Positions 15,802 to 18,823 of a stretch of DNA of 64,000 nucleotides are shown piece by piece. Origin of the DNA: Fibrobacterota bacterium (GTDB lineage Bacteria > Fibrobacterota > Fibrobacteria > UBA5070). The notes under the pieces are model-generated. The model was not told the DNA's origin. It made no database searches and worked only from the letters and a program-made list of their open reading frames with translations. Made by a program: the position numbers and the translations under genes. Every line of letters begins with the position of its first letter. Positions within the stretch are counted from its first letter, which is position 1. The stretch spans positions 212,286 to 276,285 of the forward strand of contig JADKBN010000002.1 of the NCBI GenBank assembly GCA_016715065.1. Direction: 5' to 3'.

Positions 15802-16782
15802 TCAATCCCCGCCGCCGCCTCCACATCCACCGCAGCCTCCCCCGCCACCCCCGCAGCCGGAGTCTCCACCGCCCCCACCGCCGCCATCGGAAGATCCGCC
15901 CCCGCAACCGGAATCGGAGCTGCTGGAAGACCATCCGCCGTCACTGCTGCCCGAACTGCTGGAGAATGCACTGGAAGCGGCCGGAGGGTTCATCCACAGG
16001 GGACTGGTGGCGATGGCGATGCCGGCCAGGGGTATCGCCGCGCCCCACATGGATCCGGACAATTCCTGGAACCCAAAGACCGAAGTCATGAAGGGGCGCG
16101 CATCGGCGCGGGTCCGCGAGGCTTGGGCATCGAACAGGAGTGGCTCCAACGCCCGGCGGCGGTTCGCCACGCAACGCCGACCAGCTGGGGTGGGATGGCC
16201 CCGGCGCCCTCTGGCGACCAGGCTGACCACGAGGACTCCCGCGATGACCAAAATCAGGAAGATGAGGAATCCGGCGGGCTTGTTGTAGGTCAGGGCCAGG
16301 GAAAGCTTCATGATGGCCAGGACTTCGATCGTTCCGAAGATGGCCAATCCGCGCAAGGCGACTTGGCCGGCAGTGGAACGATCCAAGAGGCCGGCGTCGA
16401 TCAGATCGGCTCGCAATACCTTGATCGATTCCGTCAATTTCAGTCCGTGCAGCGAGCCTCCGAGTTCGCCCAGCTCCTTGAGGAGTTCGGCCAGGATGGG
16501 GTCGTCGGGACGAGCGGATGGAAGGGGGATCGCAGGGCCGGTGGAGGCATCCACCTGGATCAGTCCATTGGCGTCGGCGGCGGCCAAAGCCGTCTCGATC
16601 ACCCCTCGGGGACCACGGGCCAAATAGGCCAATTCGTACGGGGTCAGCCGCATCTCCACGACCGGAGAGACGCTGCCAGGACCGCGACCGCGGAAGAAAT
16701 GGAAATAGATCCCCAGACCTGTCAGTCCGACAATCAGGAACAGGAAGAGGGGCCCGGGAATCATGCGCAGAGGTTCGAGCAT
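15802..16782 (-). CDS. TIGR04222-like membrane protein with a Gly/Ser/Cys-rich C-terminal tail (copy 1)
   Basis: N-terminal TM MLEPLRMIPGPLFLFLIVGLTGLGIYFHF; second TM FLIFLILVIAGVLVVSL; tail ...SDSGCGGGSSDGGGGGGGDSGCGGGGGGCGGCGGGGGD. Confidence 0.65.
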   Translation of the reverse strand: MLEPLRMIPGPLFLFLIVGLTGLGIYFHFFRGRGPGSVSPVVEMRLTPYELAYLARGPRGVIETALAAADANGLIQVDASTGPAIPLPSARPDDPILAELLKELGELGGSLHGLKLTESIKVLRADLIDAGLLDRSTAGQVALRGLAIFGTIEVLAIMKLSLALTYNKPAGFLIFLILVIAGVLVVSLVARGRRGHPTPAGRRCVANRRRALEPLLFDAQASRTRADARPFMTSVFGFQELSGSMWGAAIPLAGIAIATSPLWMNPPAASSAFSSSSGSSDGGWSSSSSDSGCGGGSSDGGGGGGGDSGCGGGGGGCGGCGGGGGD

Positions 16783-16809
16783 GGCACGAAAGTTAGGAAA
16801 GGGAGGTCA

Positions 16810-17793
16810 TCAATCCCCACCACCACCACAGCCGCCGCATCCCCCGCCTCCACCTCCGCAGCCGGAATCCCCGCCGCTGGAGCCACCCCCGCAACCGGAA
16901 TCCGATGAACCACCCCCGCAACCTGAATCTGAGCTGGTTGACGAACTTTCCCCGCCAGATCCGCTGCCGGAGGGCGGGCTTTGGGCAGGGGCGTGTGGGT
17001 TCAACCAAAGGGGGCTGGCGGCGATGGCGATGCCCGCCAGTGGAATTGCCGCGCCCCAGAGGGAAGTGGAAATTTCGTGGAATCCGAACACCGCAGTCAT
17101 GACGGCGCGTGGGCCGGGTTGGGTGCGGGCGGCTTGGTGGTCGAAAAGCAGGGATTCCAATGCGTGTCTGCGATCGTTCAGACAGCGACGACCAGCCAAG
17201 GTGGGAAATCCCCTCCGTCCCTGGGCCCATAGACTCAAGCCCAGGAATGCGAGGATGACCAGGGCCAAGAGGAACAGGAATGTGACGGGCTTGCCGAGAT
17301 GGAGCCCAAGGAAAAGTTTCGCGAGAGCAAGTCCTTCGAGTGTGCCGAAGATCGCAAATCCGCGCAGTGCGACTCTGCCGGCGCTGGCGCCATCCAGGAG
17401 TCCGCATTGTGTTAGGCTCCTTCGCACCGCATGGACCGACGATGACAATTTCAGTCCGCGCAAGGAGCCGCCGAGCAGGGTCAGCTCCCGAAGAAGTTCC
17501 GCGAGAACTCGATCGTCAGGGCATGCATCGGGGAGGGGGATGGCAAGCTTGGTTTCCGCATCCACTTCGATCAATCCATCGGCGTCGGCGGTCGCCAGGG
17601 CGGTTTCGATCACCCCGCGACGGCCCCGTGCCAAGTAGGCCAGCTCGTAGGGCGTCAGTGACATTCCTCGATCGGGGTTGGCTCGACCAGGCCACCAAGG
17701 TCGGTAGAAATGGAAATAGATCCCCAGACCTGTCAGCCCGACCAGGATCAGCAAAAACAAAGGCCCGGGGATCATGCGGAGGGGTTCGAGCAT
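16810..17793 (-). CDS. TIGR04222-like membrane protein with a Gly/Ser/Cys-rich C-terminal tail (copy 2, tandem paralog)
   Basis: Internal ATG at 17793 gives MLEPLRMIPGPLFLLILVGLTGLGIYFHF; tail ...SDSGCGGGSSDSGCGGGSSGGDSGCGGGGGGCGGCGGGGD; same ~30-bp 5' leader as copy 1. Confidence 0.65.
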   Translation of the reverse strand: MLEPLRMIPGPLFLLILVGLTGLGIYFHFYRPWWPGRANPDRGMSLTPYELAYLARGRRGVIETALATADADGLIEVDAETKLAIPLPDACPDDRVLAELLRELTLLGGSLRGLKLSSSVHAVRRSLTQCGLLDGASAGRVALRGFAIFGTLEGLALAKLFLGLHLGKPVTFLFLLALVILAFLGLSLWAQGRRGFPTLAGRRCLNDRRHALESLLFDHQAARTQPGPRAVMTAVFGFHEISTSLWGAAIPLAGIAIAASPLWLNPHAPAQSPPSGSGSGGESSSTSSDSGCGGGSSDSGCGGGSSGGDSGCGGGGGGCGGCGGGGD

Positions 17794-17803
17794 GGCACGA
17801 AAG

Positions 17804-18823
17804 TTAGGAAATGGGAATCGCCCACCCCGGCGCGCAACACGCGGGATCCCCTTGCGTGGCATCGCCCATCTGCGCGAAGGAAAGACATGGCGCGCCTCCC
17901 TGGCAAACGCTGGCGAACAGGCAGCGCGAGCAGCCCTCCGGCTGTCGTTGCACCAGGTCGCGCACCTTCTCCGATCCTGTCCAGATATCCCACGGGTTTT
18001 CGAAGGGCAGACGCCCGATGGGCTCCGGGAGCCGTCGGCACGGCACCACGGTGCCATCTGCGAGCACGGCCAAAAGCGACTTTCCGGCCGAGCATTTGTA
18101 CGCCTGGCCACCGCACGACAGAAATTGCAATGCACGCGAGGTGCGGACCTTGAATCCCTTTGATGACAATTTTTGGGAGACCTCGCGGAGTTCGTCCAAG
18201 AACGCCTGCGTCGCCGCGGCGTTCCAATGCGCATCGCCTGGTCCGGGCACCACGCGATCGGTCCAGATGGATTCCGCTCCCGCTTTGCGCGCGGCCTTGG
18301 CTGCTGGCGCGAGCTCGCCCAGCCTTCCCGGAAAGGCCGTGTGGGAAACCACCGTGGGAATGCCCCGGCGCGAGGTGCGCTGGATGGCCGCGATCGCGGT
18401 CTCGAATGCTTTGGGCCCACGGATCTCTTCGTGGGCCTTGCGGCTGCCGTCCAGGGAAAATTGCACGTAGCGCAGGCGAAGTTTCGCCAACTCGTCGGCG
18501 ATCGCGTCGGTCAGGAGTTCTCCGGACAGAAGCAAGGCGATCCTGGAATGAGGCAGGCGCGACTGGATCGCGTTCAGGAATTCGCGCCACTGGGGATGGC
18601 TCAGGAGTTCGCCGCCGGTGAGGTTGAAGTCCAATCGCCAATCGTCGGTCGAAACCTGCCTCGCCTTGCGATCCAATTCCACCCATTGATCCAGGATCGC
18701 CACAAGATCGCCCAGCGAAGGCTCTAGGGTGTGGTCGGGAATGTAGCAGTGACTGCAGCGGCGCGGGCAGCGATCCGTGATGTGCCACTGCACCAACAAG
18801 CGGTTGGATGGCAGTGCCGACAA
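17804..18823 (-). CDS. Radical SAM enzyme with a C-terminal SPASM/twitch domain (peptide-modifying maturase-like)
   Basis: CX3CX2C motif DRCPRRCSHCY; C-terminal auxiliary-cluster cysteines CSAGKS...VVPCRR...CSRCLFASVCQGGAPC; no in-frame ATG, so the start is probably TTG/GTG between 18791 and 18823 (uncertain); the stop is 10 bp upstream of TIGR04222 copy 2. Confidence 0.65.
   Translation of the reverse strand: MSALPSNRLLVQWHITDRCPRRCSHCYIPDHTLEPSLGDLVAILDQWVELDRKARQVSTDDWRLDFNLTGGELLSHPQWREFLNAIQSRLPHSRIALLLSGELLTDAIADELAKLRLRYVQFSLDGSRKAHEEIRGPKAFETAIAAIQRTSRRGIPTVVSHTAFPGRLGELAPAAKAARKAGAESIWTDRVVPGPGDAHWNAAATQAFLDELREVSQKLSSKGFKVRTSRALQFLSCGGQAYKCSAGKSLLAVLADGTVVPCRRLPEPIGRLPFENPWDIWTGSEKVRDLVQRQPEGCSRCLFASVCQGGAPCLSFAQMGDATQGDPACCAPGWAIPIS

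Follow-up and report, generated by a model that had tools for sequence, protein, structure and literature searches.

Two genes for membrane proteins of the TIGR04222 family stand in tandem next to a radical SAM/SPASM gene in the stretch of DNA analysed here, 64,000 nucleotides (nt) of contig JADKBN010000002.1 (positions 212,286 to 276,285) from the Fibrobacterota bacterium assembly GCA_016715065.1, hereafter the window (GC content 62%). On the minus strand, read 5' to 3', the operon-like gene row is dnaA, the radical SAM/SPASM gene, TIGR04222 copy B and TIGR04222 copy A, with 8 nt between the dnaA stop and the TTG start of the radical SAM gene, 10 nt between the radical SAM stop and the ATG of copy B, and 27 nt between the copy B stop and the copy A ATG. 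An earlier note on this DNA had singled out the tandem pair as a recent duplication of a substrate-like gene; it is the gene neighbourhood, not the duplication, that carries the significance of the locus. The principal features are as follows.

15802-16782, minus strand: TIGR04222 membrane protein copy A (distal), an open reading frame (ORF) of 326 amino acids (aa), NCBIfam TIGR04222 78.0 bits
15805-15987, minus strand: Ser/Gly/Cys tail of copy A, spanning roughly residues 266-326, with DSGCGGGSSDGGGGGGGDSGCGGGGGGCGGCGGGGGD at its end
16810-17793, minus strand: TIGR04222 membrane protein copy B (proximal to the radical SAM gene), ORF of 327 aa, NCBIfam TIGR04222 76.7 bits
16813-16998, minus strand: Ser/Gly/Cys tail of copy B; it has three DSGC units and ends in CGGCGGGGD
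17804-18823, minus strand: radical SAM/SPASM enzyme, 339 aa, TTG start, Pfam Radical_SAM and SPASM
18832-20331, minus strand: dnaA (context only), 93-96% identical to relatives' genes called Bac_DnaA

Both copies score well above the curated TIGR04222 cutoff of 43 bits; a Pfam search returned no match for either, and the DUF2207 N-terminal domain is present in neither. Copy A is a 100% match to an NCBI protein from a Fibrobacteres metagenome-assembled genome (MAG), annotated there from Met7. Its AlphaFold2 model (mean predicted local distance difference test score, pLDDT, 80) has a helical membrane core with long hydrophobic helices at residues 10-29, 138-165 and 171-190, while everything from residue 264 onwards is disordered, in agreement with the TIGR04222 architecture of a multi-helix membrane part followed by a low-complexity Gly/Ser/Cys C-terminus.

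Age and copy number of the tandem pair

The copies open identically, both ORFs beginning MLEPLRMIPGPLF, as the earlier note had observed. They are neighbours on the minus strand, homologous from end to end with a period of 1011 nt, which supports the tandem duplication that it proposed. BLASTP aligns them without gaps over 272 residues at 66% amino-acid identity (E 2e-118), identity on a codon alignment is about 68% for protein and nucleotide alike, and the direct-repeat families in the copies keep a constant 1011-nt register. Given this full-length similarity and the TIGR04222 scores of both proteins, the resemblance goes beyond low-complexity composition. The statement that the central regions diverge is only loosely right, as divergence runs along the whole gene (proportion of nonsynonymous differences, pN, 0.09-0.33 per 30-codon block). 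The tails do keep a common architecture, SSDSGCGGGSS...GGDSGCGGGGGGCGGCGGGG(G)D, with three DSGC units in copy B and two in copy A. An assembly artefact was considered and rejected, since 32% of nucleotides are different between the copies and the same arrangement with two copies is found again in a Logan contig and in an independent complete genome. The possibility that copy B is a pseudogene was likewise rejected, given its intact tail and a ratio of nonsynonymous to synonymous divergence (Ka/Ks) of 0.21.

The duplication is not recent. Nei-Gojobori estimates between copies A and B give a proportion of synonymous differences (pS) of 0.60, a Ks of about 1.23, which is near saturation, and a Ka of 0.26 (Ka/Ks about 0.21). 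A complete Fibrobacterota genome, CP064986 (locus L001), carries the same dnaA, radical SAM gene and two TIGR04222 genes, and the distal one of these shares 85-86% identity with copy A (Ks 0.46); the flanking radical SAM gene has a Ks of 0.51 between the window and CP064986. As the Ks between paralogues far exceeds that between orthologues, which matches the value for the radical SAM gene, the duplication must be much older than the split of the two species. A neighbour-joining tree agrees, grouping copy A with its CP064986 orthologue P0002 at 100% bootstrap to the exclusion of copy B, and placing copy B outside a cluster that unites copy A with three further orthologues (70% bootstrap). That the pair could nevertheless mark a recent duplication, leader included, within an actively expanding or diversifying substrate family appears highly improbable. 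The tandem arrangement with its 1011-nt period, a perfect 29-nt run at the ATG, an upstream identity of 19/20 as against 7-17/20 in other pairs, and the differing number of DSGC units would all fit such an event; against it stand the Ks and pS values over the whole gene, an orthologue of copy A far closer than its paralogue, a 5' coding identity that is common to all orthologues, and relatives with one or two copies only, one of which may be decaying.

Copy number, which the earlier note had suggested comparing among related genomes, was taken from contigs found by exact protein match (a scan with the TIGR04222 alignment gave four loci, one of them of this clade). There are two copies in the window and in L001/L002, and one in L003/L007 (a Fibrobacteria MAG), L014 and L011, while L013, where the contig ends, does not enter the count. 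About 30 more distant loci hold no tandem TIGR04222 pair. With one or two copies per relative, one proximal copy that is tailless and no tandem pair at a distance, the case for an expanding or diversifying family is weak, and the duplication itself is ordinary, a pair of old paralogues in a family already known to have several copies per genome. The tailless copy is the proximal paralogue of CP064986 (P0009, 7109-7960), which is 39-45% identical to the others; an in-frame deletion has removed its whole Cys/Gly tail and left the terminal ...ID-stop and an intact membrane domain. It is either decaying or has a role independent of the tail.

Constraint on the tail is pronounced. Over the last 26 aligned codons of copies A and B pS is 0.80 and pN 0.057, and even homologues with no more than 36-39% identity over the compared columns retain the DSGC...CGGCGGGGGD pattern. 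When 30 TIGR04222 proteins are aligned, few positions reach 90% conservation, and the terminal G-x-G-C-G-G-C-G is one of these places, its GCGGCG being the best conserved part of all; the named members of this set come from Actinomycetota, Verrucomicrobiota and Bacteroidota. Such a low pN at so high a pS, together with conservation across the family, argues for a motif rather than drift. On these comparisons, the Gly-Cys tail with its terminal CGGCGGGGD is a family-wide functional motif, and the two genes are old tandem paralogues, both under purifying selection that is strongest at the C-terminal Gly/Ser/Cys tail. Every Cys in the tails of copies A and B is preceded by Gly.

The radical SAM enzyme and its cysteine-tailed neighbours

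The enzyme is a radical SAM/SPASM protein by its Pfam scores (Radical_SAM 69.1 bits against a cutoff of 29.5, SPASM 25.3 against 21.5), by TIGR04085 (30.7 against 27) and by a CX3CX2C motif (C19/C23/C26) and seven further Cys that are invariant in 32 homologues. It reaches no curated NCBIfam family. Its best matches are the ACGX radical SAM model TIGR04340 (102.3 bits against 400) and SbtM, TIGR04082 (82.6 against 350), so that by score it belongs to neither, and the match to the SbtM model covers positions 201-515 of 516 only. SbtM is the top or second NCBIfam match within the subfamily, its best score among relatives being 157 bits in L017; no NCBIfam model captures the subfamily, as judged from the window enzyme and the relatives that were scored. 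The closest solved structures by profile search are SkfB (102 bits), CteB (99), PqqE (88) and anSME (78). A whole-library profile search puts the subfamily at more than 150 representatives at 50% identity, with at least 266 bits to the profile. Several long matches are tandem radical SAM fusions or carry an unrelated C-terminal domain, so that the best 150 are not all necessarily linked to TIGR04222 proteins. Among profile matches with non-standard layouts (P0150, P0180, P0189 and P0226, of 558-578 aa, and P0169, P0204, P0211 and P0263) there is either a C-terminal domain of some 230 aa that contains Cys and has no annotation, or a tandem radical SAM-radical SAM fusion.

The suggestion in the earlier note that the tandem genes are substrate-like gains support from a context that it had not cited, the dedicated radical SAM/SPASM neighbour. 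All clade members with enough contig (L001, L003, L007, L011, L013, L014) keep the enzyme and a TIGR04222 gene adjacent, including L011, which has other genes downstream and in which identity is 62% for the enzyme and 37-42% for the membrane protein. The adjacency extends to more remote enzymes: all three of the examined contexts of enzymes that are 33-40% identical (L015, L017, from Chitinispirillum alkaliphilum, and L018) carry a TIGR04222 protein, at 88-102 bits, with tails that include ...SGCSSSGCSSSSGCSSDSGGGGCGGCGGGD and (CGG)n-CD. The partner gene is directly upstream of the enzyme gene in two of these loci and downstream in the third.

An unbiased scan of metagenome contigs with the enzyme profile then gave 80 loci, classed by their tblastn bits to the window enzyme. 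Partners were scored with a self-built TIGR04222 hidden Markov model and a tail rule, by which the last 30 residues had to include three or more Cys and to consist of Gly, Ser and Cys to 60% or more. Where the enzyme reached at least 150 bits, an adjacent Cys-tailed partner on the same strand was found in 22 of 26 loci (22 with, 4 without), as against 0/54 loci below 150 bits. Limited to loci with at least 1 kb on both flanks, the counts are 12 with a partner and 2 without for the close enzymes, and 0/24 with one for the remainder. By Fisher's exact test, p is 5.5e-16 over the full set of loci and 3e-8 over those that are well flanked. The partner is encoded upstream of the enzyme in most metagenome loci, at a distance of 0-85 nt. 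The partners are either TIGR04222 proteins, some with an N-terminal TPR extension, or DUF2207 proteins with tails of the type CSSCGGGCSSCGGGCSSCGGGGSW or CSSCSSCSSCGGGGAD; as partners of the latter type go with the same radical SAM subfamily, the pairing reaches beyond TIGR04222. Thirty distinct radical-SAM-linked tails contain 162 Cys, 116 of which (72%) follow Gly and 26% follow Ser, with CxxC as the commonest spacing. This pairing suggests an enzyme subfamily dedicated to membrane proteins with CxxC-repeat tails, and it offers independent support for the tail as an enzyme target.

The DUF2207-type partners occur in L020, L023, L028, L029, L032, L034, L039-L041, L043 and L044; they are 520-730 aa long where the ORF is complete, and their tails have CSSC repeats and end in GGGGSW or GGGGAD.

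In one protein, enzyme and membrane domain are fused. P0243, 851 aa, which is present in two independent assemblies (JGI and Logan/ENA), consists of a multi-helix membrane domain, a Cys-rich segment (...CFGCTGCSACGGCGSCGGCSSCG / ...SSGGGICFGCTGCSACGGCGSCGGCSSCG) and, about 45 residues later, a radical SAM/SPASM domain. This arrangement implies that the Cys-rich segment of P0243 would be cytoplasmic, which is at odds with the periplasmic prediction in PMC12452194. Aligned with hhalign, its N-terminal part gives a local match of 26 columns to the TIGR04222 alignment (probability 93%), and with so short a match the homology of the membrane domain to TIGR04222 is weakly supported.

Candidate chemistry and competing explanations

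The reading we favour, with a probability of roughly 0.6, is that the two genes are old paralogues and that the neighbouring enzyme is dedicated to membrane proteins with CxxC-repeat tails and modifies the tail. Its parts are not equally firm: a functional link between enzyme and tail seems quite probable, that the tail is the substrate is favoured by a small margin, and thiooxazole as the specific product is a doubtful proposition. Under this scheme the enzyme would abstract hydrogen and modify tail cysteines oxidatively, the candidate products being 5-thiooxazoles at Gly-Cys, as with SbtM, or thioether cross-links. The outcome would be a membrane-anchored, modified and probably metal-binding tail, with the duplication supplying two substrate proteins for one enzyme and the system as a whole acting as an oxygen-independent counterpart of MNIO-TIGR04222 clusters.

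Those clusters are the nearest known parallel. In a 2025 MNIO survey in Microb Genom (PMC12452194), TIGR04222 proteins made up about 40% of a set of over 1,000 proteins that contain Cys, have no signal peptide and are encoded before MNIO genes, and the Cys-rich tails were proposed as MNIO targets in subsets of the family. The same survey collected more than 3,500 TIGR04222 proteins at less than 90% identity, a large family of unknown function with up to five genes per genome, a third of the genomes having no MNIO, and it does not mention radical SAM partners. The shared elements are the TIGR04222 family, the unstructured Ser/Gly-rich, Cys-studded tail with its CGGCGGGGGD end (found also in the TIGR04222 protein of an MNIO cluster, L100), and the idea that a Cys-modifying enzyme encoded next door acts on the tail of a full-size membrane protein rather than on a short peptide. 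The neighbour here, however, is a radical SAM/SPASM enzyme with an unrelated, oxygen-sensitive fold, whereas MNIO enzymes are oxygen-dependent, and the host belongs to Fibrobacterota, whereas the published set is mostly from Actinomycetota. The copies are not adjacent to an MNIO (PF05114) gene, their neighbours being dnaA, the radical SAM gene and a 419-aa ORF without annotation, and tblastn with the single L100 MNIO as query found no homologue, whether in the window, where the best E was 0.9, or in the loci of the relatives.

SbtM resembles the subfamily in being its best or second curated match over the catalytic and SPASM region, and its target motif, Gly-Cys(Sec), is the dominant Cys context in the radical-SAM-linked tails. 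This is resemblance and not membership: the subfamily scores 83-157 bits against the cutoff of 350, the N-terminal part of SbtM, about 200 residues, has no counterpart here, and the SbtM substrates are short selenopeptides in Geobacter and Desulfobacteria rather than membrane proteins. SbtM forms a thio(seleno)oxazole at a conserved Gly-Cys/Sec motif by radical chemistry (PMC9204691), and bufferin-type MNIOs are described as converting Cys to copper-chelating 5-thiooxazoles, the same heterocycle. The radical SAM enzyme of the ACGX-repeat peptide system is the top NCBIfam match of the window enzyme. Its partner peptides have short repeats that contain Cys-Gly, unlike the 300-700-aa membrane proteins considered here, and the best-scoring stretch is the N-terminal half only. 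SkfB, CteB, PapB, anSME and PqqE likewise modify peptides or proteins, several of them at Cys, and anSME is, like the window enzyme, compact and acts on whole proteins. The similarity to the thioether-forming maturases and anSME is, however, at superfamily level only, and the tail has no SCIFF, sactipeptide or sulfatase motifs. As to DUF2207 (YciQ-like) proteins, Pfam DUF2207_C weakly matches the TIGR04222-type partners, and many of the metagenome loci pair bona fide CSSC-tailed members with the same radical SAM subfamily. Literature searches for radical SAM enzymes with ACGX, DUF2207 or Cys-rich membrane tails did not find this pairing, which is a new variation on a recently proposed type of system and a good experimental lead.

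Several observations weigh against modification of the tail by the enzyme. The chemistry is a guess, with the enzyme far below every curated cutoff. Pfam and NCBIfam find no N-terminal recognition domain (RRE) in it, and only 18 residues precede CX3CX2C. The candidate substrates are 326-327-aa polytopic membrane proteins and not short precursor peptides of the kind classical for RiPPs (peptides ribosomally synthesized and then modified post-translationally). TIGR04222 proteins with the same tail in L008-L010 and L099 have no radical SAM or MNIO gene within 5-7 kb, so that the tail may work unmodified and the link would be specific to a subfamily and not family-wide. Two of the 14 well-flanked loci with a close enzyme (L035, L037) have no partner. 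A strong palindrome lies between the radical SAM and TIGR04222 genes in the relatives L001 and L003. The proximal copy of L001 is still an open reading frame after the loss of its tail, which points to a role of the membrane domain beyond carrying a tail. There is also the question of topology: the positive-inside rule and PMC12452194 suggest a periplasmic tail, apart from the cytoplasmic radical SAM enzyme, and prediction of the putative fourth membrane helix is poor, at a pLDDT of about 57. A cytoplasmic tail is suggested, for at least one relative, by the fusion P0243, taken with that same poorly predicted helix.

Some of these points could be explained if the radical SAM gene were merely syntenic in the dnaA region, without a functional link, and the Cys/Gly tail acted unmodified, for instance in CxxC metal or redox binding. 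The same-tailed proteins without a nearby radical SAM or MNIO gene, the hairpin that separates the two genes in L001 and L003, and the third of TIGR04222-bearing genomes that have no MNIO (PMC12452194) would all fit. Synteny of this kind is improbable, however, as the adjacency persists at 30-40% enzyme identity, in other gene orders and away from dnaA, as the presence of a partner (22/26 versus 0/54) splits by enzyme similarity, and as the two functions are fused in P0243.

A functional link could also mean that the membrane protein is the enzyme's partner and not its substrate, serving as an anchor, as a donor of Fe-S or metal through its CxxC tail, or as an exporter for some other substrate. 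CxxC repeats are classic metal or cluster ligands. The missing recognition domain and a membrane domain that is conserved and retained even in the tailless P0009 agree with such a role, as would, weakly, the helix-helix-hairpin modules in the soluble part of the AlphaFold model, which could bind a partner. We consider this role rather unlikely, though somewhat less so than mere synteny. No other small Cys-rich ORF is consistently present, the partner gene is mostly 0-85 nt upstream of the enzyme gene, as a precursor gene would be, the Cys-bearing tail is the hallmark common to TIGR04222- and DUF2207-type partners, and the published MNIO work also takes the tail as target.

The pairing provides a concrete candidate enzyme-substrate pair for TIGR04222 members that have no MNIO, and possibly a way by which metal-binding groups of this cysteine-derived kind are made anaerobically. 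A bolder extension, which we regard as unlikely, is that the enzyme subfamily is the oxygen-independent analogue of MNIO and converts the Gly-Cys tails of TIGR04222 and DUF2207 proteins in anaerobes to thiooxazole-type or cross-linked, metal-binding groups, giving membrane-anchored, metallophore-like tails. One class of substrate would then have an aerobic and an anaerobic enzyme, much as sulfatases have FGE and anSME, and radical SAM RiPP chemistry would reach full-size membrane proteins without a recognition domain.

The shared 5' sequence and other features of the window

The sequence common to the starts of the two copies, and the remaining features around them, are:

16772-16800, minus strand: 29-nt perfect repeat at the start of copy A (18 nt upstream and codons 1-4)
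17783-17811, minus strand: 29-nt perfect repeat at the start of copy B, overlapping the final codons and TAA stop (17804-17806) of the radical SAM gene
15720-15810, minus strand: very stable hairpin directly past the copy A stop (-58.4 kcal/mol, z -6.8)
14417-15676, minus strand: ORF of 419 aa downstream of copy A, with no Pfam or NCBIfam match

The near-identical upstream sequence of about 35 bp described in the earlier note is real as a shared string: the perfect run is 29 nt, made up of 18 nt of 5' flank and 11 nt of codons 1-4, so that only 18 nt are upstream. The 21-mer TTTCCTAACTTTCGTGCCATG has exactly two occurrences in the window (0 expected). The radical SAM gene contributes its 3' end (...ATT CCC ATT TCC TAA) as the flank of copy B, and copy A has a TAA at the same offset, although the copy B stop is a TGA 15 nt further upstream. 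This TAA is probably a relic of the duplicated segment, and its retention indicates that the duplicated unit began inside the end of the radical SAM gene. Judged from these flanks, the unit is the stretch from about 20 nt upstream of the ATG (radical SAM end and stop) to a few bases past the TIGR04222 stop.

Similarity further into the genes is no sign of youth. In every orthologue, 69-88 of the first 102 coding positions are identical, third codon positions at 47-85%, as against a gene-wide synonymous identity of about 40%, which indicates a clade-wide constraint at the nucleotide level in all orthologues. What is specific to this genome, as far as the alignments go, is the 18-nt upstream flank only: upstream identity is 19/20 within the genome, 13/20 between copy A and its orthologue, 12/20 between the L001 copies and 7-17/20 in other pairs. 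A short gene-conversion tract between old paralogues, as opposed to selection on a shared initiation or regulatory element, would account for this contrast and for perfect runs of 29 and 31 nt where roughly 15 would be expected at 68% identity (a rough estimate, not computed). A loose pyrimidine-rich consensus (ATTnCCTAnCnTTTTGCCC-ATG) precedes all orthologues, however, the 5' region is predicted to be unpaired with no significant structure (z -0.9 and -1.1 for the two copies), and synonymous differences start 12 nt into the gene. Conversion is thus a serious candidate that falls somewhat short of even odds; either a conversion tract or a co-selected initiation element is possible. Neither 5' region has a Shine-Dalgarno sequence, and Rfam searched with E up to 1 gave no known RNA family for either; with no significant structure as well, a shared leader in the form of a recognisable riboswitch or attenuator was rejected.

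The second perfect run between the copies, 31 nt long (16695-16725 and 17706-17736, minus strand), covers codons 20-30 (CTGACAGGTCTGGGGATCTATTTCCATTTCT). It carries a weak terminator-like hairpin flag in both copies and is largely conserved in orthologues.

NCBI annotates both TIGR04222 genes from Met7 (320 and 321 aa), whereas the start codons used here are at 16780-16782 and 17791-17793. Since orthologues conserve MLEPLR, and since P0008, a more distant homologue, has Ser in place of Met7, the upstream ATG is the likelier start, and the NCBI genes probably begin six codons short.

The hairpin past copy A is a repetitive extragenic palindromic (REP)-like palindrome and possibly the end of the operon. 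This perfect palindrome, AGAGACGCCCCnnnGGGGCGTCTCT, has dispersed copies in the genome and is found in the window at 15758-15782, past copy A, and at 30455-30479, whereas in the relatives L001 and L003 it stands between the radical SAM and TIGR04222 genes; its core, GAGACGCCCC, occurs 5 times in the window (0.44 expected). A scan for promoters and terminators gave signal at background level only. The 419-aa ORF is 74% conserved beside the TIGR04222 gene in L003, L007 and L014; in CP064986 (L001) only its C-terminal 73 residues are left. Long proline-rich ORFs on the plus strand (PPPPQPPHPPPPPPQPES..., 16763-17638, 14504-16288 and similar) were rejected as genes, being antisense shadows of the Gly/Cys-rich tails. 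Antisense to dnaA, at 19658-19731 on the plus strand, the window has a sub-threshold Rfam match to AsdA, the antisense RNA of dnaA mRNA (32 bits, where the gathering score is 52; E 9e-4), which may reflect only the conserved coding sequence of dnaA.

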